Part shown: one piece after another, positions 1,488-45,128 of the stretch | Layout: the number at the start of each line of letters is the position of its first letter | Position numbering within the stretch: the stretch's first letter is position 1 | Source: Porphyridium purpureum | Taxonomy: Eukaryota | DNA: 64,000 nucleotides | Assembly: GCA_008690995.1 (NCBI GenBank) | Contig: VRMN01000002.1 | Coordinates: forward strand, 1,922,001 to 1,986,000 | Direction: 5' to 3' | Made by a program: the position numbers and the translations under genes | The notes under the pieces: model-generated | Told to the model about the DNA's origin: nothing | The model's input: only the letters and a program-made list of their open reading frames with translations | Database searches by the model: none

Positions 1488-4400
1488 ATGAGGTTCTTCG
1501 AGTATGGAACTGTGGCAGTTGCAGCAGGAGCTGGCGGCTTGACGAAGGAGGCTGCCTCGCGCGCGCCGGAATTGGTGGTGGCGTATGAGCAGGGTTTGGT
1601 GTGGGATGGGCGCGATGTCGGCAAGGTGTTTGTGAATGCGCAGCGGATCTGGCCGCAGGGAGGACTGGAGGACGAGCTGCCGAATGTGGAGATCCGGGTC
1701 AAGGTAGAGAGCGAGGATGAGGCGTGGATGCATTGGGGCACGCTCACCAAGTCCACGGGCGCGCAGGAGTGGCGGACACCAGCACCCTTGCTGGGCTCGG
1801 GAATCACCGTCTCGTGCCCCGCGGCAGATGTACACGAGCATGACGCGTGCGCGGCTAGGATCAAACTGCAAAACGCGCAGGAAATGCTGCTCGTCGTGCA
1901 GGGCGCCGCCACAGAAGACGTCGTGGCAGTGCTGTTCTGCATCTTTCTGAAAAAGAGCGACGGACACGAACGCTGGTTCTCCGGGCCAGGTGGAAACGAC
2001 CACAAGATACATACGGGCGATCCAAAGGTGGCTGACGCAGCCGCTGGCGGTGACACAGCCACGCGCATCCTCGAAGGCGAGGCCGGCGAAAGCTGGAGCA
2101 TGCCGTCGCGATTTGGGCTCATCATCGATCTGTGCGGCGGACCGGCGGCCTCGTCGCTAAATGATATGGCGTGGGTCTTTGTCGTGCTGCGATACCATAA
2201 CATGCGCCAGCTTCGATGGTACTCCAAGCACAACTATCAGTCCAAGGATATGGGCCACCTCCTAGATACCTTGTCAAAGCGCGTTACGCAGGTCGCAGCT
2301 CATACTGGGCAGCATCCGCGCACAAAGTACCTCGCGCGCGTCGCCATGAGCTACCTGTCTCGCGGGGGTGGCCAGGCAGAGGCGATTCGTATCGAGATTT
2401 TACACATTATGCGTCGGAACGGCATTAAGGAGGGGCATAGGCCCGGCATTGACGACAAGTTCATCGAGCAGTGGCACCAGAAATTGCACCAACATACCAC
2501 GCGCGACGACATTCACATTTGCAAGGCATACCTTGCATTTCTGCACTCGGGCAACATGGGCGACTTTTGGCACACACTATGGGTCAAAGGAAAACTGACG
2601 CGTGAGGATTTGGCTAGCTGGCCAAATAAGATCACGCATGAGCCGTTCCACTTGCCACAGCTCATCAATGATATGAAGCACTACCTGTGGATTTTACAGA
2701 CTGTTCACGGCGGCGCTGACTTGGGCTTTGCAACCGAGTCGGCGAAATGGGCGCTTGATGGCGAAACCCAAGGTATGTTGTACGACATCATGGCCAATTA
2801 TGACGAGTGGTGGGTGCCTGGGAAGATTGCAGATGTGAGGTTCCGGATCTGCGACGGCCCATTGAAGCATTGCCCGAACGCAGAGCGCGACATCTTACTC
2901 CTTGACGCCGCGCTTGTCGCCGCATTCAAGCACACAACCGAGCGTACAAACTTTAGCGAGCTGCCAAGGGACCCGTTGATCGATATTGCTGACATGGTTC
3001 TGCGTCAGTCTGCGCTGTGCTGGATCGACTCCAGCAGCCCAGAAAGTCTCGGGCGGGAGCTGTGGATAGCGGCAAACGAATGGAGCCAGCTGGTGAAAAA
3101 TAGCGGCGACCGGTCGTCGCCGCGCTGGGCGCTCAAGGCGCTGGCACTTGCCGACAAGATTTCACTGCTGCTAGCAAAGGACGCGTCGGAATTGGACACC
3201 CTTTTCCGCGACAAGACGGTTCAGCTTGCTAAAGTGTCTGGCATCCCGGACAGTTACGTACTCAACTTTACCGAGGAAGTCGTGCGCGCGCAGCCGAGCT
3301 TTGTGCTCTCTTCAATTCTGCGATATCTCACGCCCGTGCTTCGAGACACTGCCGGCGTGGGTCCGTGGAATGTGGTGAGTATGGGCGACAATGCTGGCCG
3401 CACCAGCAGCGCCTGTGCATTGAAAATGGTCTCGGATCTCGCCAACATTCAGGGCGAAGACTTTTCCAAAGCCCCCGTGATTGTCATTGCTGACGGGGTG
3501 GACGGGAATTGTGATATCCCGCTGGGCGTCGAGGCGATCGTGTCAGGTGGCTCGGTTGATATTTTATCCCATGTTGCGATCCGCGCGCGCAATCAGGGCG
3601 TCGTTCTCGTGTGTTGCGACGGAGATACGCTGCACAAGCTACGTGATCCGTTGCTGGAGGCGTCGTCGAGTGGCAATGGTGCGCTCTTTTCCGTTTCGGT
3701 CAATTCAGCCAGCTCGGAAGTTCAGATTTCGGGAGCGACTGCCGGAATTGCGGCTGGAAATGGACCTGGTGCCGATTCTTCGTCTCATGCGAAAGCGTCG
3801 GGCGCAGAGAAAGTATCGATTGCAAAGCCCCTTGCGCTGGATAAGGCGCTCCAGGAGGAACCTCTTTTGGAGCTGGGATCCATGGTGGCTGGGCTGGTCG
3901 GTGGAAAATCATTCTCGCTTCAAGAGATTCGTTCGAAGCTCCCAGACTGGTTGCAAGTCCCCAAATCGTACGCTCTGCCCTTTGGCACGGCCGAGCTGAA
4001 TGCCAAGCTTCTCGGGGTCAAGCAGGTGGTGCTCCCGAATGGAGAGAAGGTGACGGAGGAAGCGCTTCAGCAGGTGCGTGATGAGCTTGAGGCAGATCCG
4101 ACAAACATGTCGGCGCCTGTGAATGTGGCTCTCGCAAAAGTTGCAGCTCAGTTGGTTCCAGAAGACTTGGTTGCGTCGTTACCAGGCGGCATGGCGGCGG
4201 CCGTCGAGACCTTGTATCGAGGGGTGCTTGCCGTTTGGGCGTCAAAGTACACATACCGTGCCACACTTTCACGCCGTGCTCAAAAAATTGCGGACGCGGA
4301 TCTTTACATGGCTGTGCTTCTGCAGCCCGTGGTCAGCGACGTGGCCTACGCTTTTGTGCTCCACACGAAAGATCCGTTGAGTGGAGATGCTGACACTGTG

Positions 4401-4832
4401 TTTGGAGAAGTCGTGGTTGGTATGGGAGAGACGCTCGTGGGGAGCTACCCTGGACGTGCGCTGGCGTTCTCGGCCAGCAAAAGCGGAGGCGGCGTGAAGA
4501 TTCTTTCCTACCCGTCCAAGTTGATCGGATATTTTGCCACGCCTGGCACACTGATGGCTCGCTCAGACAGCAATGGCGAGGACTTGGAGAAGTTTGCAGG
4601 TGCTGGGTTGTACGACTCTGTGGGTGTCGGCTGTATAAAGTCCTGCGCAGTCGATTATGCTCAGAATCGTCTGTTTACGGACGACGCGTTCGTGGATGAG
4701 CTAGTGAGCAAGCTATTGCGGTGTGGTGTCGACGTGGAGAAGGCGATGGGTGGCCAAGTACCACAAGATATCGAAGGATGTGTTGACAGCGCGGGAAACG
4801 TGACGGTTGTACAAACGCGTCCTCAAGTTTAA
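1488..4832 (+). CDS. GWD: Alpha-glucan water dikinase, apparently cytosolic
   Basis: QWHQKLHQHTT.DDI.IC.AYL; phospho-His motif ILSHVAIRARN; C-terminal GETLVG.YPGRA, RSDSNGEDLE.FAGAGLYDS, QDIEG..VQTRPQV. ATG at 1488 after a purine-rich leader; no transit peptide. Confidence 0.93.
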   Translation: MRFFEYGTVAVAAGAGGLTKEAASRAPELVVAYEQGLVWDGRDVGKVFVNAQRIWPQGGLEDELPNVEIRVKVESEDEAWMHWGTLTKSTGAQEWRTPAPLLGSGITVSCPAADVHEHDACAARIKLQNAQEMLLVVQGAATEDVVAVLFCIFLKKSDGHERWFSGPGGNDHKIHTGDPKVADAAAGGDTATRILEGEAGESWSMPSRFGLIIDLCGGPAASSLNDMAWVFVVLRYHNMRQLRWYSKHNYQSKDMGHLLDTLSKRVTQVAAHTGQHPRTKYLARVAMSYLSRGGGQAEAIRIEILHIMRRNGIKEGHRPGIDDKFIEQWHQKLHQHTTRDDIHICKAYLAFLHSGNMGDFWHTLWVKGKLTREDLASWPNKITHEPFHLPQLINDMKHYLWILQTVHGGADLGFATESAKWALDGETQGMLYDIMANYDEWWVPGKIADVRFRICDGPLKHCPNAERDILLLDAALVAAFKHTTERTNFSELPRDPLIDIADMVLRQSALCWIDSSSPESLGRELWIAANEWSQLVKNSGDRSSPRWALKALALADKISLLLAKDASELDTLFRDKTVQLAKVSGIPDSYVLNFTEEVVRAQPSFVLSSILRYLTPVLRDTAGVGPWNVVSMGDNAGRTSSACALKMVSDLANIQGEDFSKAPVIVIADGVDGNCDIPLGVEAIVSGGSVDILSHVAIRARNQGVVLVCCDGDTLHKLRDPLLEASSSGNGALFSVSVNSASSEVQISGATAGIAAGNGPGADSSSHAKASGAEKVSIAKPLALDKALQEEPLLELGSMVAGLVGGKSFSLQEIRSKLPDWLQVPKSYALPFGTAELNAKLLGVKQVVLPNGEKVTEEALQQVRDELEADPTNMSAPVNVALAKVAAQLVPEDLVASLPGGMAAAVETLYRGVLAVWASKYTYRATLSRRAQKIADADLYMAVLLQPVVSDVAYAFVLHTKDPLSGDADTVFGEVVVGMGETLVGSYPGRALAFSASKSGGGVKILSYPSKLIGYFATPGTLMARSDSNGEDLEKFAGAGLYDSVGVGCIKSCAVDYAQNRLFTDDAFVDELVSKLLRCGVDVEKAMGGQVPQDIEGCVDSAGNVTVVQTRPQV

Positions 4833-5079
4833 GGAGATACAAAATGTATGTAATTTGATTATCAGACGTTTCAATACAGGTTATGTACACGATCCTTAAT
4901 TGCTACTTGCCAAAACTATCCCCGATGCGCATGACAAGGCAATCCCCCACCAATTCAGAAGATGTTGCGATTTGGCACGCCTCGTGAGATGGCGCCAGCG
5001 AGGTTACAACGCAGCCAAGATCTCGACGCCAGACGTGATCCAGCGCGTGAGCAGCAAGGCTGGCCTGCGTGCAAGTGTG

Positions 5080-5087
5080 CATATAAG
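5080..5087 (+). promoter_or_regulatory. TATA-like element (CATATAAG) upstream of the coiled-coil gene
   Basis: Lies ~125 nt upstream of ATG 5209 and is followed by an AG-rich leader like other genes in the window. Confidence 0.4.
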
Positions 5088-5208
5088 CGCGAAGGGCGGG
5101 CGCGGTGGCGGTCTGTGTCTAATCTGCCTCGTCCAGAAGTCCAAGCGTGAGCGGCAGGAGCACAGGAAGGGGAGGAGGCAGCAGGTAGGAACGAAGAGAA
5201 GATTGGCC

Positions 5209-5853
5209 ATGGCGGACACGGGCAAGACCGAGTACACGGTGGCGCGTGCGCTCGTGCAGATGAAGATGATTGGAAAGCGCGTCGAGAAGCAGGTCCAGGA
5301 GTTTGAGCCCGTGTGTATTCAGACCGGCGCCAAGCTGGAGCAGTCGATGCAGAACAAGAGCCTGGAGCAGTTCCAGAAGGAGACCAAGGCCGACTGGCAG
5401 TCGCTGATGGACCTGTTGGAGCTGAAGCGCAAGCTCAAGTGCGCAGTGGTGCTCTCGAACGCGACCACGTCGGTTGAGGTGGCCGGCACCACGTACACGG
5501 TAGCCGAGGTGATTGAGCGCAAGGCGCAGATCGAGCTGGAGCGCGAGATGGTGCGCAATCTGCGCGAGAAGTACGCACGCAAGCTGCGACAGGTCGAGAG
5601 CAAGAACACGGAGATGGAGGCCAAGATGATGAAGCTGCTAGAGGCGACGTACGCGAAGCGCGAGTCGCAGCTGAACAAAGAGGACTATGAGCGCATCACT
5701 GGACCTTTCCTGGAGAACAACGAGTCCAAGCTGATTGATCCCATCAGCATCGATGCGAAGCTGCAAGAGTTCGAGAAGCGCATCGAGGAGTTTGAGGCCG
5801 AGTGCGACGTGACGCTGAGCATTTCGAACGCGCGCGCGATCATCTACGTGTAA
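5209..5853 (+). CDS. 214-aa coiled-coil protein, DIP1984/DUF6847-like (prokaryote/phage-type), function unknown
   Basis: ATG in GCCATGG context; very strong G/C-ending codon use. Motifs YTVARAL..K, VVLSNATTSVEVAGTTYTVAEVIERK, LIDPI and EFEAECDVTLSISNA match the pattern I recognise for this family. Coding status is high confidence, family assignment moderate. Confidence 0.7.
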   Translation: MADTGKTEYTVARALVQMKMIGKRVEKQVQEFEPVCIQTGAKLEQSMQNKSLEQFQKETKADWQSLMDLLELKRKLKCAVVLSNATTSVEVAGTTYTVAEVIERKAQIELEREMVRNLREKYARKLRQVESKNTEMEAKMMKLLEATYAKRESQLNKEDYERITGPFLENNESKLIDPISIDAKLQEFEKRIEEFEAECDVTLSISNARAIIYV

Positions 5854-5856
5854 ATG

Positions 5857-6143
5857 GTGGTTGTCAGCACGACAAGACGACCGGCGACACTACGTATCAC
5901 GGACAGATGGCACGCACTCACATAACAGTTCTTTCTGACTGCGGAGAGACGCAACATGTAAAGCAGACCTTTTTTTTTCTGTCTCGTCATCGTCCGGCTG
6001 TGATCTTGAAGCGCCCCCGCTTCTTCGCATTTATCCGCTTAGCTCTCACTCTGGAGCGAATGAAACCATGCTTGAGCAGCGCATGGTGCAATATGGGCTT
6101 TAGGGATGGCTATCCATTCTGCTTTTCGTCTTGGTCAGACCAC
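5857..6143 (+). ncRNA. Candidate structured RNA (~290 nt) starting right after the stop codon (3' UTR element or ncRNA)
   Basis: Closing helix 5857-5862/6138-6143 plus 5871-5880/6126-6136; long helix 5896-5911/5986-6004; hairpins 6008-6023, 6065-6087 and 6103-6120. Folded by eye. Confidence 0.5.
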
Positions 6144-6510: not shown

Positions 6511-8136
6511 ATGAGCAACGCACCGATTGTGGTGCTGAACCCAAATGCAAAGCGCGAGCAGGGGCGCCGCGCGCAGCTGACGAATATTGCGGCGGCCAAG
6601 GCGGTGGGCGATATTATCAGGACGACGCTGGGCCCGCGCGCAATGCTCAAGATGATTCTGGACGCGCAGGGATCGGTCGTACTCACAAATGATGGAAATG
6701 CGATCCTGCGTGAAATCGACGTGCAGCATCCGGCGGCCAAATCGATCATCGAGCTGTCCAAGACGCAGGACGAGGGCGTGGGCGACGGTACTACGTCGGT
6801 CGCCGTGCTGGCGGGCGAGCTGCTCGCCCTCGCGGAGCCGTTCCTGGAACGAAATATTCACCCGACCGTCATCGTGGGCGCGTACTTTCGCGCGCTGGAT
6901 GACGCCGTCAACGCGGCGGAAAGCGCCGCGCTCGTGATCGATCAGGACAACGCCGAAGAGGTCGGCAAGGTGATCGCCTCGTGCCTAGGCACAAAGTTCA
7001 TGAACCGGTGGGCCAAACTCATGGTGCACCTTGCGTTGCAGGCAGTGAAGACAGTGATGGTCAAGACAAACGACCGCATTTCGATTGACTTTAAGAACTA
7101 CGCGAAGGTTGAAAAGATTCCCGGTGGTGAGATCTCGGACTCTGAGGTGCTTGACGGCGTGATCATCAACAAGGACGTGTGCCTGGGCAACATGAAGCGC
7201 AAGATTGAGAACCCGCGCATCATCCTGCTCGACTCGCCGCTTGAATATCGCAAGGGCGACAGCCAGACCAATGTGGAAATTACCAGCGAGGCAGACTGGG
7301 GTCGATTGCTCAGGCTAGAGGAAGAGTTTGTGGAAAAGGCAGTCGCGGATCTGCTCAAGCACAAGCCAGATCTGGTCATCACCGAGAAGGGCATCTCAGA
7401 CCTCGCGCTCCATCTCCTCCAAAAGGCCGGCGTGGCGTGCATCAGGCGACTGCGCAAGACAGACAATAATCGCATTGCGCGCGCAACCGGCGCAGTGATT
7501 GTGAATCGCCCGGAGGAGCTCAAAGAGAGCGATGTCGGCAGCGCAGGTCTCTTCGAGGTACGAAAGATTGGCGACGAGTACTTTACGTACATTGTGCAGT
7601 GTGCGGCGCCCAAAGCGTGCTCGATTGTGCTGCGCGGCGGCAGCAAGGACGTGCTGAACGAGATTGAGCGCAACCTCATGGATGCCATGTGTGTAGCGCG
7701 CAACGTTATGCTGAACCCAAAACTGGTGCCCGGCGGCGGCGCGATTGAAATGACCGTCAGTCAGGTATTGGCCGCAAAAGCCAAGACGATTCAGGGCACC
7801 AGCCAAGCGCCCTATGCCGCGGTTGGCGAAGCGCTCGAGGTGATTCCGCGCACGCTTGCCGAAAACTGTGGTGCAAACGTGATTCGCGTGCTCACACAAT
7901 TACGCGCCAAGCACGCGGACGGTGCGAACACGAGCTGGGGCATCGACGGAAACAAGGGCGTGGTGACAGACATGGTTACGCTGGGCGTATGGGAGCCGCT
8001 GGAGGTCAAAGTGCAGACCTTGAAGACGGCCGTCGAGGCCGCTGCTATGCTTTTGCGCATCGACGACATTGTGAGCGGCATCAGCAAAAAGAAGGAGCAC
8101 GGCGGGCCCAACATGGATCAGGATGACTTGGACTAG
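6511..8136 (+). CDS. CCT3: T-complex protein 1 subunit gamma
   Basis: RTTLGPRAMLKM, TNDGNAILREI, GDGTTS, YAKVEKIPGG, RRLRKTDNNRIARA. Confidence 0.97.
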   Translation: MSNAPIVVLNPNAKREQGRRAQLTNIAAAKAVGDIIRTTLGPRAMLKMILDAQGSVVLTNDGNAILREIDVQHPAAKSIIELSKTQDEGVGDGTTSVAVLAGELLALAEPFLERNIHPTVIVGAYFRALDDAVNAAESAALVIDQDNAEEVGKVIASCLGTKFMNRWAKLMVHLALQAVKTVMVKTNDRISIDFKNYAKVEKIPGGEISDSEVLDGVIINKDVCLGNMKRKIENPRIILLDSPLEYRKGDSQTNVEITSEADWGRLLRLEEEFVEKAVADLLKHKPDLVITEKGISDLALHLLQKAGVACIRRLRKTDNNRIARATGAVIVNRPEELKESDVGSAGLFEVRKIGDEYFTYIVQCAAPKACSIVLRGGSKDVLNEIERNLMDAMCVARNVMLNPKLVPGGGAIEMTVSQVLAAKAKTIQGTSQAPYAAVGEALEVIPRTLAENCGANVIRVLTQLRAKHADGANTSWGIDGNKGVVTDMVTLGVWEPLEVKVQTLKTAVEAAAMLLRIDDIVSGISKKKEHGGPNMDQDDLD

Positions 8137-9631: not shown

Positions 9632-12600
9632 ATGGAGGATCTGGATCCGGATCGTTTGGAACGGTCGAGCGAGCCAACGGCGTTCGAGTATCAGAAGTAT
9701 GGGAACAAGGTGAACTTCTCGCGCCACGCGTTCTACGTGGACGGCGAGCCGCTCGTGCTCGTGTCGGGCGAGTTCCACTATTGGCGTGTGCCAGACCGTG
9801 AGCGCTGGCGACCGCTGCTGGCGGCGCTCAAAGCCATGGGCCTCAATTGCCTTCGCTTCTACATCAATTGGGGGTATCATTCGCCGGCAGAGAACTCGTA
9901 CATCTTCGATGGCAATCGCGACATCGACTACTTGCTCACGCTCTGCGAGGAGCTCCAGCTCTTTGTGATCGCCGCGCCGGGCCCGTATATTTGCGCAGAA
10001 ACGCAAGCCGGCGGGTTTCCCACCTGGCTGTTGGCCAAGCGCGACATTCGGATCCGACACATGCGCTTTCACTTTTATAAGATGTGGGACGAACAATTCG
10101 CACACTTTTCAAAGCAGTTCTACTCGCACATCGTGCCGATCTTTGCAGCACACGAGCGCATCGTCAAGCCAGACGGCTGCGTCATTGCCTTCCAGATCGA
10201 GAACGAGCTGCGTGAGCTGTTCGGTCTGGACGAAGAAATGCGCTCGCTGGCGCGCGCCGCGCGGGAGTACGGCATCAAGAGCCCGATTTTCCACAACGAC
10301 GACTCACCGGCCGGCTCATGGTCAAGCGGCAAGTACTTGCGCAACAAGAGCACTCTCTATGTCACCAAGACCGACCAGAAACGCTACCGCGGCGACATGT
10401 ACGGCGTCGACTTGTACTTTCTGTTCCCCAGTATGCGCGACACGGCAGACGATCAGTCTGCGTTTGTGATCATCGCGTTTCAGTTTGGCGGCTTCGCGGC
10501 GTTCCTGCAATTCTTCGGCATTGGTGGTACAGGTCTTGGTGGGCGCGACCTAAAGCTTCTCAACACGCTGGGCTGCTTCAAGGACGAACCGGTGCACGTG
10601 CCCCCGAAAGTGCTCGGCTGGACTGCCAAGGATTTCACTGGTCACATTGATCACTTTGAGTCCAAGTTCCACGCCATGGGCGGCGCGGCGTCGAACGGGC
10701 CAGTCGTGCTTGCGGAAACGCAGGTGGGATGGATCAACCAGTGGGGCAAGCGCCGCGATTATGACGACTTGTACGAATTCTTTGGCGGCGACCAGTCAGC
10801 TACCCTGATGAACAGCCTCGTAGGCCAAGGCGTGTCTGTTGTTTCGTTCTACATGGCGTATGGCGGCACCAATTGGGGCACGTCCGGTGACGCCGAGGTG
10901 TATACCTCGTACGACTACACTGCGTTTGTGCGCGAGTTTGGCATGTTGTGCGAGCGCGGCCGCCGCTTGCGCCAGTCTGCACTTTTCCTACAGACGTTCA
11001 CCGCTGACGGCATCGCCGAATCGGTGCTGGTCCCGAAAGCGGTCGCCGCTCGCGATGAGCACATCTCGTGCTCCCTCCCAACCATGCTGGTGACAGTACG
11101 TAAAGCGGTACCGCGCGCTGGGCAGGCAGATAAGGACCTACCTCGCTTTCTCTTCATGCGAAATCTCGAATACCTGGGCTCGACTTCTGCACCAGCCGAC
11201 GACGCAAGCACGCCTTTCTCTCTAGCAGTGGCAGGCATCGTTGTTCCCTGTATGGTGCGCCCGCGGCAATCGTTCATCGCCGTGGCGAACTTGCGCATCA
11301 GGGGCGCGCTGTTTCTTCACGTGTGCTCGATCCCGATTTTGTTCAAGTGCAGCTCGTACCACGGGGCTCCACTGTGGGGACTCAAAATTCCGGAACGCGG
11401 CTCCGTAGGTCGGTTTGTATTTCGTGTGCCTTCGAGCCGCAGCGCCAAGTACACGCTGAAGTGGCAGTGCGAGGACGGTACCAGCGGCTCTGTTTCTGTG
11501 AGTTCGAGCGACGCGGCATCCACGCTTCCGCTTTTGAGCGCGCCTTTGGAGGAGCTTCCGCTGGCCGAGTTTGCGCCCCCAGAGGCACCGGACTGCCCGG
11601 TTCAAATGCGCATGTCTCGAGATACAGAAGAGCATTGGTTCGTTTCGATCGCCTTTTGGCGGGAGTGCTTTGTCACGCTGCTAGATAGCAGCATCGAAGA
11701 CGCGTCCGAGCCAGTGCTGCTGCTCCGTATGATGGCTGTGTCCGAGGTACATGCTGACACGCTGTTCTGTAGCTTTGGCAAAGATTTGCGCTATGCGTCC
11801 AACTCGGTGCTACCACCCACAGTGATTGCGTACGGCGCTCATGAAATCTCAATGCCGGACTTAAAGGCTGGGAAGCTGAAAGTTGAGTGGAAGCGTTCAG
11901 ATACGCGCGCGACGCTGCTGCAAGACACCAGCCCAGGGCTTGGAACCGTTTCCGATGATGCTTTCCCTGGAATTTCAGTGCACGATGCTCCGAAATCGTT
12001 TGACTGGGACGGTCTTCCTCGCTCGATGCAGCTGAGCGACGCCTGCGTGCGTGGAATTGATTTTACGAAGGACGTCACGTGGAAATCGATAGACTTGGAA
12101 ACACAGCGCGATCCGCTAGATCACCTGTTTTCGCACGGCCACGTGGCGTACCGTCTCCAGTTTGAAGTGCCGGCAGTGAAGAAGATGTGGCAGTCGTCGC
12201 GCGTGTATTTGACGCTCAACGTGCGTCACGTAGGTACAGTTTGGGTGAATGGCCACGCGCTGGGGGGACAACTCACCTACAGCCACAACGCCATTTCAGC
12301 AGGCGCGATGCACTTTCAAGATTTCTGGTGGTCTGGCAAGAAGAACTATGACATCACAGACCAAGTGGCGTCCAACTTGTCCGAGCCAGATGCGAATGGC
12401 ATGTGCTCGCAGGACGTGATCATCCTCGTGCACTCCTTTGGGCAGAACCGCCAGGCCTTCCTGCTGAACGATGTCCGCAACAAGCGTGGCCTTTTGTCTG
12501 CTAAGCTCAGCGCATCGGGAGTGCAGAACGAGCGTTGGTCTATCTATGGCGTTTCAACGGCTGACGTCAGCAACCCATTCAACATTGGTGGTATTCCGAG

Positions 12601-24619: not shown

Positions 24620-24744
24620 TGTGTCGCGGTTCGTCTTCTCCCCACACTGCCCCACACATGTCCCATCACACTCCCCCGCACATCGCACTGCCACTCTTCT
24701 AGCTGCGTTTCGGTTCAACCGGTTTCCTCGCCGTTTTCGGATTC

Positions 24745-24850
24745 GGCTTATCGGGTTATCGGCGTATTGGCTCGTCGGTCATGACAAGCTGATAAGCTGA
24801 TAGGCTGATAGGCTGATTGGCTGACAAGCTAAGCTGATAAGCTGATAAAC
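24745..24850. repeat. Divergent 8-bp tandem array of (T/C)GATAAGC-like units
   Basis: Eight + strand units plus a 5-bp partial at 24782-24850; four degenerate - strand units at about 24746-24777; centred near TCATGA (24779-24784). Confidence 0.9.
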
Positions 24851-24992
24851 CGAATGGACAGCGGCTCACGGCAGGCGGCGAGTGGCGGGGCGGGAGAGAG
24901 AAATGGAACGAGACGACGAGCGGGAGCGGTCGAGTCAGGGTGTGAGACGGTGTGTCAGTGTATGTTTGTTGCCAAGCGGGCGAGGAAGTGAA

Positions 24993-28947: not shown

Positions 28948-29049
28948 GTTCCCTGTCGCCTCTCGCACGTCGCCCACGCTGCGGTATTGGAGCCATGTGT
29001 CGGCCAAGAAGACTATGTGGCCGGTTAACATTTCGTGAGGTTCTGCAAC

Positions 29050-29964
29050 ATGAGTGGGGCGACTCCTCGAGGAATGGAGGAGCGCGGGTCCGCAGGCGCG
29101 CACGGCCTCACTTACTGCGAGATATGCTGGGCGCGACCTGCGGGCGGCGGATCGCGGGTGGCACGCGCGCTCCGGATGGTTGGCGAGTTGGATGCGTTGA
29201 CGCTGGGTGTCGCGATGGTTGTGCTGGTGTACGTGGCTACCACCGTGCGGGATCCGGTGGTTCGGCCGCTGATGATGATGGACGTGACACGGTTTGCAGC
29301 CAAAGCAGAGCCAGAGCAGGTTCATGTGGCAGAGATGTACACACTTGCTTTCGCGCTCGTTGCCCTGATTCCCACTGTCGAAGTGCTGCTCCGCCCGCGC
29401 GGCAGGAGCGTGGCGCACGCGTTTCTACTCGGGCTGAGACAAGTATCCTCCTACTTAACGGCAGGCATGCTCTCGGTGGCAACGACAGAAGCCTCCAAGG
29501 CCACAGTAGGGTGGATGCGACCAGACTTTGCGAGCCGCTGCTTCGGCCCGGATGCGCTACCCATCAAGGAATTCTCTCCGCGAGTCATCACCTCGGATGC
29601 TGATTGCCTGTTTCAGCAGTCTTTGCGGGACGGGCGCAAGTCGTTTCCATCAGGTCATTCGTCGTTCGGCTTTTTTTTCGGAACGTGGGTGTGCGTCTAC
29701 TTGATACACATCAGCACGCGCTTCGCGATGCGGCGCAACATGGTCGCAAATGCGCTGCAGTGTATCGCGCTTGTACCACTCGTCTATGCGACGTGGGTTG
29801 CGTGCACGCGCATTGTCGATAATCGCCACTTCCCTGCAGACGTCGCCATGGGTTCATTGATCGGCATTTTCTGCAGTGCACTGCTGCATTTCCGAACGCT
29901 TTCAATTATCACCGAAACCTGCCCAGACGCGAAAACGCGCGCCGATAACATCTACTTTGTATAA
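29050..29964 (+). CDS. PAP2 lipid phosphate phosphatase
   Basis: C1 K..VGWMRPDF, C2 SFPSGH, C3 TRIVDNRHF.ADV; several TM helices. Confidence 0.93.
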   Translation: MSGATPRGMEERGSAGAHGLTYCEICWARPAGGGSRVARALRMVGELDALTLGVAMVVLVYVATTVRDPVVRPLMMMDVTRFAAKAEPEQVHVAEMYTLAFALVALIPTVEVLLRPRGRSVAHAFLLGLRQVSSYLTAGMLSVATTEASKATVGWMRPDFASRCFGPDALPIKEFSPRVITSDADCLFQQSLRDGRKSFPSGHSSFGFFFGTWVCVYLIHISTRFAMRRNMVANALQCIALVPLVYATWVACTRIVDNRHFPADVAMGSLIGIFCSALLHFRTLSIITETCPDAKTRADNIYFV

Positions 29965-40889: not shown

Positions 40890-42122
40890 TTACCCGATGG
40901 TTGTTTGGAGTGAGTCACGACACGCCTGGAGCTTGCGCGTAGCGCGCGTCAGCGTCTGTGTGACGGCCGACAGCGAGACGCCAAATGCCTCGGCAACCTC
41001 GGTCACGGATCGGGGGTGCTCGTGCCCGTCCAGACCGTAGCGCATGCACAGCACAGCGTGCTCTTTAGAAGTGAGTTGCTCACGAAGGAAACGACTCAGC
41101 AGCTCGCTGCGCTCTTGCTCGAGAACACGCATATCTGGCATGTCTGCCTCTGAGATTCGCACAGTACTCGCAGCGCTCACACTGGACGAGGCCGACGACA
41201 AGCCAGAGTCGCTTGTTTCCAAGTGGAACACCAGAGGCGAGTCCAAACTCCTCACGTCAAAGCTGTTTTCCAACGTGCTTCGAATCAGCGACTCTTCGAG
41301 CGGCGTCTCTAGGCGCTGGGCGATCTCAGACACCGTGGGCGACCTGCCCAGTTCCAGCGCAAGGGTCTTGGCAGTCTGTTGAATGGCTGAGCGCTTCTCA
41401 AACACATGCACAGGTAGCCGAATCATGCCGGCCTGGTTTTGTTCTGCCCTACGCATGTAGTGCATGATCCACGGCGAGGCGTATGCAGCAAAGCTCGTGC
41501 CCCGGCTCGGGTCAAACTTGCGCGCCGCGTGCATAAGGCCCAAACACCCTTCCTGAACCAGGTCCATGAGAGGCAGCCGGAAGTAAGATGCACATTTTCT
41601 AGCCATGCGTACAACCAATCGCATATGCGAAACAACCAGTGTGTTTCGCGCTTCCGATGCCGTATCTTGAGCGCCATGTCCCACGACTGGATTTTCTAAG
41701 AGCTGTTTGCTCAATGTCTGCACGCGCTGGTTGGACAGATACTCTTGCATCGCCGCCTGCAAGGTCAGTTCACGGAGCTCGTCCCTTTCGGTGGCGAATT
41801 TCGTCAAAAGGGGCGCTGATGACGTGAATGATGGCAAGGACCGTAGTTCCTCTTTCACAGCGCTGCTCGGTGTCTGTGCTGGTGCTTTGCGCCGTGATGA
41901 CGACGTTAATGATGTCCGCCGGCGCGAATCTTGCAGCGTTCGTGTGCGCACTGATGCCTGCGTTCGATCTCTATCTACAACTACCCCTCTCATGACGACA
42001 ACGTTATGTGTGCACGGTTGCTGTGCGCACGCCGACGAGCCGGCCGCGATTCGCTCCGCCGCAAACGCCGGTGCGCCGTGCGCACGAATCGCGATGCCTC
42101 CCGTGTGCACGAATCCCGCCAT
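40890..42122 (-). CDS. Nuclear-encoded plastid sigma-70 factor
   Basis: Region 2 MRLVVRMA..DLVQEGCLGL..A.KFDP.RG..F..YA..WI, IRLPVH, region 4 HTH; transit-like MAGFVH at 42122 (start uncertain). Confidence 0.9.
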   Translation of the reverse strand: MAGFVHTGGIAIRAHGAPAFAAERIAAGSSACAQQPCTHNVVVMRGVVVDRDRTQASVRTRTLQDSRRRTSLTSSSRRKAPAQTPSSAVKEELRSLPSFTSSAPLLTKFATERDELRELTLQAAMQEYLSNQRVQTLSKQLLENPVVGHGAQDTASEARNTLVVSHMRLVVRMARKCASYFRLPLMDLVQEGCLGLMHAARKFDPSRGTSFAAYASPWIMHYMRRAEQNQAGMIRLPVHVFEKRSAIQQTAKTLALELGRSPTVSEIAQRLETPLEESLIRSTLENSFDVRSLDSPLVFHLETSDSGLSSASSSVSAASTVRISEADMPDMRVLEQERSELLSRFLREQLTSKEHAVLCMRYGLDGHEHPRSVTEVAEAFGVSLSAVTQTLTRATRKLQACRDSLQTTIG

Positions 42123-43788
42123 ACTCTCGTGCCTCACCATAATTTTCGAACAAAATCGTTCCGCTCTCCGCGTCTCCCTCTGCTTCTTTCGCAACGCCTC
42201 CATACTTCTTCCGTCCCGCTCAATCGTAATATGCGCGAGCCGCCGAATGCCTCGACGTGCTCCTCGCTGTGCACAGCGCTGTGCAGGCTTGCGTATGGCC
42301 GTGGCCGCGGCCGCACTTTCCACCGGACCGCGTGCGGAATGCGGCGATGCGCTCCACGGCAAATGACGCGGCGCGCTTTGCTCCAACGGCCTTTGCCAAC
42401 TGCCACCGTGCCCGTTCCAGCGCTTTGCCAGAGCCATTAGCCGCAGCTGCGGCGCGTATCCGTACACGGTTCCAGAAACGCGTGCTCGCCCCGCGCACCA
42501 AGAAACAGCCGCGCGCGGAAATCATATATCAAAACAGCCCGTTTTTATGGGAAACGGCGCGGTGTGCGCGCAGTAAGCGTGCATGACGCGCTTGGAACAT
42601 GCAGCAAGGTGTACCTCTGCAGGGTGTGGGTACAGTTGGAACGGACTGTACTTTTAGCAGAACCGGGCGCCAGCTGGACGCGCTTGGCTGGTGCCTGGCT
42701 GGGAGCAGGCGGGTAAGGGCTGACTGGGAGCCTGAGGCAGAGGACGAGCTGGTTTGTGGAATGGAAAGAAGCAGCAGGGCGACAGCGCGGCGCTGCACGA
42801 TCATTGACAGGATGGACAGACTGGTGTGAATGGTCTGGCGCCGGTTATAAAAGCACCGCTTGCATTGCCCGGGCAAGAGTGGAGGCCGGCATTGGTATGA
42901 TCGATCACTGCGGAGAAGGGGAAGCCATATTCTGCTTTGGTCTGGACAGGACCCCGGGCAGGGCCCGGGCAGGGCCTGGGCAGCATGCGTGCTTCCTGAG
43001 TGACGAGAGGAAGGTCAGCTTGGGAATATCGGTCAGAGAAAGGTAAAAGGAGGTGATGTGAGTAGCTGGGCGTACCGAAGACGGTGCGGGAACCCCCCAG
43101 ACAGCGCGAAGCATGCAAATCGACGAGGTCTTTCATCAACGTGCAGCAAATGAAGGAACTGTTGCTTCCATCAACACAGCTCATGTTGACAATGTTCTTT
43201 GAAAGATCAGCGTTCACACGTTCAAGATTCAAATGTCACAGCCATGGGCGAGACGGAACGATCCCGTCTTGCCGCGGCGCCCTCAAAGCTCAAGAAGTGT
43301 TCAGAATCTCAAGCTTCAGCGCGTAAGGCTCGTTCAAATCCCAGGTCTACAGTGATGCGGAGTCTCCTTGTCCTCCGCGCGTGCACTGCTGGGCAGCGCT
43401 GTCTGGGTTTCTGCATCGTCTTGGGTACGTCGCAGCTACTCGCCATCCCCTCCTTTTCTTCTCTATCCACCTGCCGTTTCTCTCTTTCTGTTTCTGCACA
43501 CTTAGGATTATACTCCAACGGTAAATACTCCGCTCTTCTCGCACACGCGCGCAAGTCATTGCCTCATTCGTCCTTGGTTTCTTTCCTTGCTCACGCCATT
43601 TCTCCGTTCACTTTTGCAGTTGAACAACCGCGATACCTCACCCGTTATCGAGAACACTGTACCTTACCCACCAACCTGGCTGACGTACGTCAACGCATAT
43701 CGCCATATCCGCCATTACCATTTTATATCATCACGCGCTTTAAGCGAGCTCTCTCTATGTGAATTAATTAACAGCGCTTCTCTTACGA

Positions 43789-43823
43789 GCAGCCGCCGCA
43801 GCCGCAGCCGCAGCCGCAGCAGC
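43789..43823. repeat. (GCAGCC)n simple repeat
   Basis: Seen directly in intergenic DNA. Confidence 0.85.
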
Positions 43824-44132
43824 ACACCCCCGACCTCGAGATCTGTCATCGCTTGATCTTTGTTTGTTCATGTCAGCCACAAGTGGAGAGGGGGGTTCTG
43901 TGTTCGTGTATCAAATCGCGCCGTTTTGATACACGCATCGCGCGGTTGCAAGTGTGTTCCGCGTTCGTTCCGCAAGGTCCGCGCGCGGAGGGAGGGCCAG
44001 CGCGGCGCGTATAATTGCGGTGCTGCGCACGCAGGGCCGGCCGAAACCCCTCCACAAAAGTCGCCGCTCTGTCCAATCGCACTGTTTTGCGGTGTGAAGG
44101 CTTTTTCGAGCGGTCTGTTGAGCGGGTTCGCT

Positions 44133-44140
44133 TATAAAAA
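44133..44140 (+). promoter_or_regulatory. TATA box (TTATAAAA) of the DCC1-like gene
   Basis: Canonical TATAAAA followed by a ~280-nt purine-rich leader. Confidence 0.55.
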
Positions 44141-44423
44141 GGGCGCGGTAGGAGCGAGGCGGAAGCGAGGCGCAGACAGGAAGCGGCGGGAGGTGGAGAG
44201 TGGAGCGGTAAGGGAACGTGGAGGGGTAACAACGGAACGGAGGAAGGATAAGAGCAGCGCGCGGTGGGGGAGTTGTGGAAAGAGGAAGAGTGGTGGTGCG
44301 GTGGCGGACGGTGAAGAGTGTTGCGATAAGAAGGGTGGGAAAGTGAAGGAGGGAAGCGCGCGAGAGAAGGGAGAGGAACGGCCTAAAGGAGGTACGGGTG
44401 AGAGGGCGACGCGCGCAGAGAGG

Positions 44424-45128
44424 ATGATGGCGTGTGAAGCGGGATTTGTAGGGAGTGGACTTGTGGGGGCGGGCGCGGCGCAGGCGCGAGCTGCGCGCGG
44501 CGTGGATGTCGCGCGTGCGCGCGGAGGAGCGGCCGTAGCCGTTCCGAGGGTGTCGCGTGCCCGGCTCATGATGACGACCACGAGTAAGCCCGAGCTGGAC
44601 GTGCAGAAGCAGCAGCTGGATGTGAAGGAGCTGGCGCGCGGCATTGAGCGCTCGCAACTATCGTACCGCGACGTGGATTGCGACAAGTGGTCCATCGAGC
44701 TGTTGTACGATGGCGCGTGCTCACTGTGCACGGCCGAGGCGAACTTTTTGATGAAGAGGGACACGGGTCGTGGAAACATCAAGTTTGTGGACATTTCAAG
44801 CATAGAGTATGACGCATCCGAACATCACAACGTTTCTTACGAACAAGCCATGGGTCGCCTGCACGCCATCAAGCGCGACGGTACGATCATCACCGGTATC
44901 GATGTCTTCCGTGAGACGTACGCCGCGATTGGGCTTCTGTGGGTCTATCACCTTATGCAGAACCCTGTGGTAGGCTGGATGGCCGAGCGAGCTTACGATA
45001 TCTGGGCGGAAAACAGGTTACGAATCACAGGGAGGGGAGAGCTTGCAGATATCATTCGAGAGCGCGAGCGGCTGCTCGAAGAAAAGAACGAATCGGAGTG
45101 CGAGGATACGTGCAACATTGATTGGTGA
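44424..45128 (+). CDS. DCC1/DUF393 thiol-disulfide oxidoreductase, plastid-targeted
   Basis: LLYDGACSLC (DxxCxxC), FVDIS...Y, AMGRLH, YDIWA..RL.ITGR; transit-like MMACEAGFV. Confidence 0.9.
   Translation: MMACEAGFVGSGLVGAGAAQARAARGVDVARARGGAAVAVPRVSRARLMMTTTSKPELDVQKQQLDVKELARGIERSQLSYRDVDCDKWSIELLYDGACSLCTAEANFLMKRDTGRGNIKFVDISSIEYDASEHHNVSYEQAMGRLHAIKRDGTIITGIDVFRETYAAIGLLWVYHLMQNPVVGWMAERAYDIWAENRLRITGRGELADIIRERERLLEEKNESECEDTCNIDW

Follow-up and report, generated by a model that had tools for sequence, protein, structure and literature searches.

A gene of the phrog_1491 type (5209-5853) and an intergenic RNA (43062-43439), both lying in the window (the whole stretch of 64,000 nucleotides of Porphyridium purpureum DNA that was analysed), are read here, with moderate confidence, as the two halves of a split gene-RNA pair, which were likely acquired together and whose protein is predicted to assemble on eleven short repeats of the RNA. 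It is plausible that the pair acts as a ribonucleoprotein. The first-pass annotation had proposed that the alga holds both a phage-like gene and its structured RNA. Both are indeed present, but the RNA is located about 37 kb from the gene and not within about 160 nt downstream of it, as in homologs.

The open reading frame 5209-5853 encodes a protein of 214 amino acids on the plus strand. Its stop codon (5851-5853) was confirmed where it had been placed, well before CCT3, which starts at 6511. The strong codon bias ascribed to the frame was borne out as well, since the third-position G+C content (GC3) of 0.88 exceeds the values of both adjoining genes (0.65 and 0.75); such full codon adaptation suggests an old transfer. 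The product is identical to the C-terminal part of one Porphyridium purpureum protein. Within the frame, a 34-nt repeat occurs twice (5282-5315 and 5771-5804, 82% identical).

Searches of the Pfam and NCBIfam profiles with the algal protein alone found no family, while the phrog_1491 profile matched it over the full length (E 3.3e-51, residues 6-213 on profile positions 2-208 of 211). The AlphaFold2 model of the protein is a long helical hairpin, a coiled coil, with a pLDDT of 89.7. The top Foldseek match of this model is PDB 3KDQ (probability 0.97, E 0.19), a conserved protein of Corynebacterium diphtheriae which we take to be DIP1984/DUF6847 and which is about 60 residues shorter than the algal protein. 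VIA also placed 3KDQ on top (Z 9.8, 150 of 152 residues, rmsd 7.0), a score that helical bundles can reach by chance, and the sequence search against the PDB gave weak matches only, with 3KDQ at E 0.32. The nearest named Atlas cluster is DUF6847 (0.86), a mere lead, and the Pfam/NCBIfam profiles of DUF6847 or DIP1984 matched 0 of 25 members of the phrog_1491 family at E 0.01. The earlier description of a DIP1984-like coiled coil of phage or bacterial type is right, the structural scores being suggestive of the 3KDQ fold but short of decisive; the family assignment itself is not supported by the profiles. Basic residues K19, K23, R24, K27, K73, R74, K77, R104 and K105 are conserved. Profile and structure searches detected neither a nuclease nor any other toxin domain in the protein, and no support for toxicity was obtained for the suggestion of a toxin/defence-like unit.

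Genes of the phrog_1491 type are present in 728 of 50,697 phage records, including ORF080 of phage T5. Relatives of the algal protein form 3569 clusters at 50% identity, and 168 stretches with such relatives were confirmed in prokaryote genomes. In the annotated regions of phages T5, phiK7A1 and SPLA5a (three of three) the gene is located among tRNA or early genes, and tRNA genes often adjoin the viral loci of the family. HU, PhoH, a phage RNA-polymerase-like protein and a phosphoesterase were considered as a third component and rejected, since their recurrence reflects related prophages; a TROVE domain was absent from the 30 recurrent neighbours scanned. Two contigs carry two copies of the gene each (L165/L166 and L281/L298), about 166 kb and 157 kb apart, and a RAGATH-18 and a skipping-rope RNA were noted close to the module, at L067:1912-1985 and L058:1139-1226, both viral loci.

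The expectation that such genes are often followed by a structured region proved to be correct for the relatives. From 243 loci fetched, 201 distinct flanks of at least 400 nt, belonging to phages, bacteria and giant viruses, were retained. A sequence profile built from 34 flanks matches 189 of the 201, training set included; among the 12 flanks missed, six were recovered by a covariance model and four others have full anchors. A heuristic based on motifs and pairing recognised the same architecture in 153 of 201 flanks, whereas the upstream controls gave 10 of 144 and the shuffled ones 12 of 153. Of 47 sources, picked mostly among earlier misses, 33 gave a match to the covariance model built for the 3′ domain. 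Each of the four genomes or records that were searched whole contains exactly one match. In the three of these that had no adjacent match, the RNA was found 0.7-0.9 kb downstream (two) or just past a contig break (one).

The family RNA is 238-421 nt long and starts, as measured at the start of P1, 11-160 nt after the stop codon (median 18, n = 137). Its 5′ part comprises the P1 helix, GAAA, a variable arm and seven repeats of 7 nt; the 3′ part comprises a short linker, four further repeats, AAAUC, a helical domain and, preceded by CUG or CAG, the 3′ strand that completes P1. The closing helices covary. RNAalifold gave a covariation term of -7.5, with double changes in 16 of 19 pairs. In alignment A3, 97.8% of 578 cells are paired and 15 of 17 pairs show double changes, a figure that is partly circular because the selection heuristic demanded pairing; in a mostly non-training, model-fitted set the values are 92.4% of 357 cells and 10 of 12 pairs. 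An unselected test of P1 within the searched stretch found at least 9 of 10 pairs in 13 of 27 loci versus 105 of 702 cross pairs.

Sequence identity within the RNA peaks at lags of 7, 14 and 21. The repeat unit reads A-R-N-N-N-U-Y, where A1 and U6 are near invariant across the 11 units, and 52 of 72 non-training homologs keep 9-11 units. Conservation is weaker in units 9 and 10 (0.58 and 0.38), which makes a strict count of 11 uncertain. No conserved pairing is seen inside the tract, and the variable positions lean to the consensus AAAGYUY; compared by eye among close relatives in four groups, they are not hypervariable. A distinct protein clade (L010, L021, L027, L036 and L047), which includes giant-virus (GVMAG) contigs, has RNAs with a C-rich repeat variant and an additional hairpin in the 3′ domain. 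Permuted tRNA-like modules consisting of a T arm, a closed acceptor and a D arm are inserted in the variable arm of some RNAs (L221:1795-1908 and, by eye, L082, L083, L162, L169 and L199); three of these loci are among the closest relatives of the alga, whose own RNA has no module.

The 3′ flank of the algal gene is an ordinary UTR. It had been described as a self-contained folded domain (5854-6143), denser in helices than any other 3′ flank in the window. Folding does yield a helix able to close 5857-6143, but the minimum free energy of 5854-6143 (-86.1 versus a shuffle mean of -82.6, z -0.73) is equalled by 46 of 200 shuffles, so that no self-contained domain is apparent. Nor is the flank unique in the window: when positions 1-58580 were divided into 202 tiles of 290 nt and each was compared with 8 shuffles, 57 folded at a lower z. 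The Rfam scan of the segment gave no match, and the comparison with the family RNA gave no anchors, no match to the profile or to the covariance model and 0 of 11 repeat units. The words CCGGCUG (5994-6000) and GCGAAUG (near 6056) resemble family motifs; having no matching partner strands, they were taken as chance. The most stably folding tiles of the scan are 24651-24940, 29001-29290 and 11601-11890, with z of about -4.3, -4.1 and -3.3.

The expression data comprised two raw RNA-seq runs with the same species label, the libraries of which may be poly(A)-selected. They show a plus-strand mRNA that starts near 5140 and is polyadenylated after 5979, tails being attached there in 20 and 48 reads of the two runs. 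Read depth is 615-2209 within the frame versus 7-61 at 5986-6139; in place of the discrete RNA of about 290 nt that had been expected, only low read-through is thus seen past the poly(A) site. With the fold statistics and the lack of a family match, this led to the rejection of 5854-6143 as a structured RNA. One contig of a random-primed run covers 5270-6133, and the mRNA of CCT3 is tens of times scarcer than that of the gene 5209-5853.

After 5933, 37 and 124 reads diverge into letters absent from the window, and they probably come from the 3′ UTR of a second gene copy or from a structural allele. The public annotation holds two near-identical copies on one scaffold, P0174 and P0002. P0174 (1417 aa) is the locus 5209-5853 fused to a glucan water dikinase gene (window 1488-5853), and the fusion is an annotation error, because RNA-seq depth is near zero between both genes; P0002 is the second copy, with a different upstream part. 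As the reads leave at 5933 and two copies are annotated, the second copy probably lacks the last 210 nt of the flank RNA that had been proposed.

The copy of the family RNA was found elsewhere in the window. The nhmmer profile matched 43188-43368 (21.8 bits, E 3e-6), and 29 shuffled windows scored at most 5.7 bits with the same profile; the sole match of covariance model R1 in 64 kb is 43310-43409 (40.4 bits, E 1.7e-5). All 12 modelled pairs are standard, P1 (43097-43107/43396-43406) forms 10 of 10 pairs and is followed by GAAG, and the feature of CUG or CAG before the 3′ strand of P1 is found as well. A1 and U6 are kept in 9 of 11 units, a typical score for a homolog, which none of 60 random segments reached. 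The segment 43062-43439 folds at z -8.4, its core 43097-43406 alone at z -3.3, and a long outer stem with arms to about 42870 and 43476 brings z to -9.9 (20 shuffles); a TATA-like box is located at 42846, just upstream of this stem. The G+C content is 0.60 versus 0.23-0.51 in the other model matches. A frame of 172 codons that overlaps the RNA has no Pfam match. An Rfam scan of 42500-44200 at E 10 gave no RAGATH-27 match, a blastn search of the RNA against phages found nothing, and blastn between the RNA region and the gene region showed no likeness better than E 0.43. Upstream of the core, inside the predicted transcript, a G+C-rich hairpin with three near-tandem short repeats was noticed (42918-42999); it has a weak, chance-level Rfam match.

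Table. Features of the phrog_1491-type gene, its flank and the distant family RNA in the window
Feature	Position	Strand	Evidence or detail
TATA-like box	5082..5087	+	main read 5′ end near 5139
phrog_1491-type gene	5209..5853	+	profile E 3.3e-51, model pLDDT 89.7, fold nearest 3KDQ, RNA-seq
Ordinary 3′ UTR	5854..5979	+	RNA-seq, poly(A) after 5979
Remainder of the flagged segment, outside the module	5980..6143	+	low read-through only
Sigma-factor gene flanking the intergenic RNA	40890..42437	-	
Likely full transcription unit, inferred	42846..43476	+	TATA-like box, outer stem
Family RNA copy, core 43097-43406	43062..43439	+	profile, covariance model, z -8.4
P1 5′ strand (43097-43107) and GAA junction motif	43097..43111	+	pairing
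Seven-base repeat tract	43202..43331	+	9/11 units keep A1, U6; 7 units 43202-43291 with inserted hairpin 43242-43281, linker 43292-43302, then 4 units 43303-43331
AAAU motif and 3′ helical domain	43336..43406	+	12 model pairs standard; inner helix 43340-43344/43389-43393, second helix 43350-43354/43384-43388, terminal hairpin, CA and P1 3′ strand 43396-43406
DCC1-like gene flanking the intergenic RNA	44424..45128		

It is likely, judging from sequence comparison, that the algal gene and RNA were acquired together and separated later. In a tree of 71 rows, built by a quick method, four proteins join the algal one (SH-aLRT 98), and a wider clade including sequences of Desulfobacterota and Sericytochromatia has a support of 95. 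The four proteins nearest to it are P0003, P0004, P0005 and P0187; no close viral relative of the algal clade was found, the best identity being 38%. When 106 RNAs are ranked by how closely they resemble the algal one, those adjoining the five closest proteins take ranks 1, 4, 5, 8 and 16, and locus L162 has an exact word of 19 nt in common with the algal RNA. Taken overall, protein similarity and RNA similarity correlate modestly (rho 0.29), and this is confounded by G+C content, which shows the stronger correlation (rho 0.41). The eukaryotic copy rests on one eukaryote examined.

Several known systems resemble parts of the pair. Rfam scans of 41 homolog loci detected RAGATH-27 (RF03100) in two of them, on the first 86 nt of the RNA (L221 with 80.3 and L073 with 92.1 bits, above the cut-off of 76.1 bits; G001, with 73.5 bits, is below it). 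The RAGATH-27 model corresponds to the 5′ 86 nt of the RNA of one subfamily; it takes in the 5′ strand of P1 and CGAAAA but neither the repeats nor the 3′ domain nor the pairing that forms P1. RAGATH-27 is reportedly due to Weinberg and co-authors (2017). Its name does not appear in the main text of PMC5737381, and the literature search found no link of RAGATH-27 to the phrog_1491 protein or to eukaryotes, although the supplement of 2017 may note a link to the gene. The variable arm of L221 contains an insert similar to YrlA (RF02553; 33.2 bits, E 1.6e-5, below the cut-off of 69 bits). YrlA is a scaffold RNA bound by the protein Ro60 and contains a permuted tRNA-like module; in the family RNA such a module is optional, it is absent from the algal RNA, and the partner protein is not Ro60.

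The attenuation protein TRAP of Bacillus forms a ring of 11 subunits on 11 short, evenly spaced, single-stranded RNA repeats. By analogy, a ring on repeats is the likely working principle of the algal protein-RNA pair, although TRAP is small, built of beta sheet and directed at mRNA leaders, whereas here a long helical hairpin would meet a dedicated structured RNA with a period of 7 nt. VIPR, according to its description (10.64898/2026.04.26.720920), combines a phage protein with a non-coding RNA of short tandem repeats that have fixed and variable positions. The VIPR repeats have a period of 5 (GGY/NN) with a hypervariable NN, in contrast to the period of 7 (A-R-N-N-N-U-Y) with no hypervariability seen in the family RNA, which, unlike VIPR, has long-range closing helices.

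The following mechanism can be proposed. The protein is predicted to assemble along the eleven seven-base repeats, with about one subunit, or one dimer, on each. The tract would be single-stranded, and A1 and U6 may be read base-specifically by the conserved basic helices; the fixed number of repeats, their base-specific conservation at two positions, the lack of conserved pairing in the tract and the conserved basic residues point to an oligomer that lines the tract, each repeat taking one unit, and that is closed by helices of the RNA itself. Both ends of the tract would be joined by P1 and the GAAA/AAAUC/CUG junction, and the dimensions of a closed ring, or of a short helical turn, would then follow from the fixed 7+4 count. 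The variable arm after GAAA would be displayed outside; our best guess, suggested by the tRNA-like inserts and the tRNA neighbourhoods, is that it presents a cargo or a decoy. In prokaryotes, the RNA would be cut out of the gene's own transcript. In the alga, a TATA promoter belonging to the RNA itself would drive its transcription, and the RNA would act in trans.

The main rival to the display of a cargo or decoy is an antitoxin-like or autoregulatory sponge, the repeats of which would sequester the protein and prevent it from polymerising or acting as long as the RNA is not degraded under stress. The antitoxin of type III toxin-antitoxin systems is a repeated RNA of this kind. Such a system would fit the finding that each gene is linked to a single repeat RNA, in mobile elements as well as in chromosomes, and the retention of both halves by the alga. 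However, the protein has no recognisable nuclease or toxin domain, the gene is strongly expressed in the alga, and in lytic phages it sits among tRNA and early genes, and we regard the sponge as unlikely. The algal RNA may also be a true homolog that has become a relic or independent of the protein, the latter having an RNA-independent structural role. The gene and the RNA are unlinked, and the gene is probably present in two copies while the window holds one copy of the RNA. Against this stand the survival, at a G+C content of 0.60, of every one of the 12 core pairs together with the junction motifs and the 7+4 register, the codon adaptation of the gene that suggests an old transfer, and the long outer stem and TATA-like box added to the RNA; this reading is also improbable.

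Rather less probable still is a VIPR-like function, in which the variable bases of the repeats, three to four in every unit, would serve as a gapped guide for a nucleic-acid target. Fixed and variable positions do alternate in the units, the pair is widespread among phages, and the repeat count of VIPR, given as 9-16 (10.64898/2026.04.26.720920), is similar; yet the variable positions tend to one consensus, the apparent lack of hypervariability in the four groups argues against a guide, and the RNA is single-copy, with no arrays. The location of the functional RNA in the 290 nt directly after the stop codon is very improbable. A closing helix can be drawn there, some reads and the random-primed contig run through, and libraries that were poly(A)-selected could miss an untailed RNA; but the fold is ordinary among shuffles and tiles, transcripts end at 5979 or depart at 5933, and the family RNA is absent there and present elsewhere in the window. 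Finally, phrog_1491 is labelled as a tail fiber protein, and many GenBank records repeat the label. A virion tail fibre with an incidental RNA is nevertheless hardly credible, since in none of the three annotated phages does the gene belong to the tail module, it also occurs in bacterial chromosomes and in the alga, and the structure that matches it best belongs to a functionally uncharacterised bacterial protein. The preferred reading remains the split pair with a protein assembling on the repeats.

The literature search found no description of the protein-RNA pair, the repeat tract or the eukaryotic copy; subscription papers and large catalogues of candidate RNAs were outside its coverage. 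With slightly less than an even chance, the pair represents an undescribed class of ribonucleoprotein, an eleven-unit coiled-coil ring counted by its RNA, which has moved whole into the nucleus of a red alga and still works in trans. If so, this class would be widespread, occurring in phages (T5 among them), bacteria and giant viruses, and the algal RNA would have become a separate gene, equipped with a promoter of its own and a long additional stem. A phage gene labelled 'tail fiber' is accompanied by an RNA that is large and conserved and is represented in Rfam by a fragment only; the family RNA supplies the full structure of RAGATH-27 and a candidate protein partner, and the pair is directly testable in T5 or Bacillus. 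Prokaryotic protein-coding genes have commonly been transferred to red algae. Keeping a non-coding RNA partner after a split of 37 kb, apparently re-equipped for eukaryotic transcription, would, if true, be very unusual, and the retention of the RNA in spite of its separation from the gene argues for an action in trans and for usefulness in both prokaryotic and eukaryotic cells.
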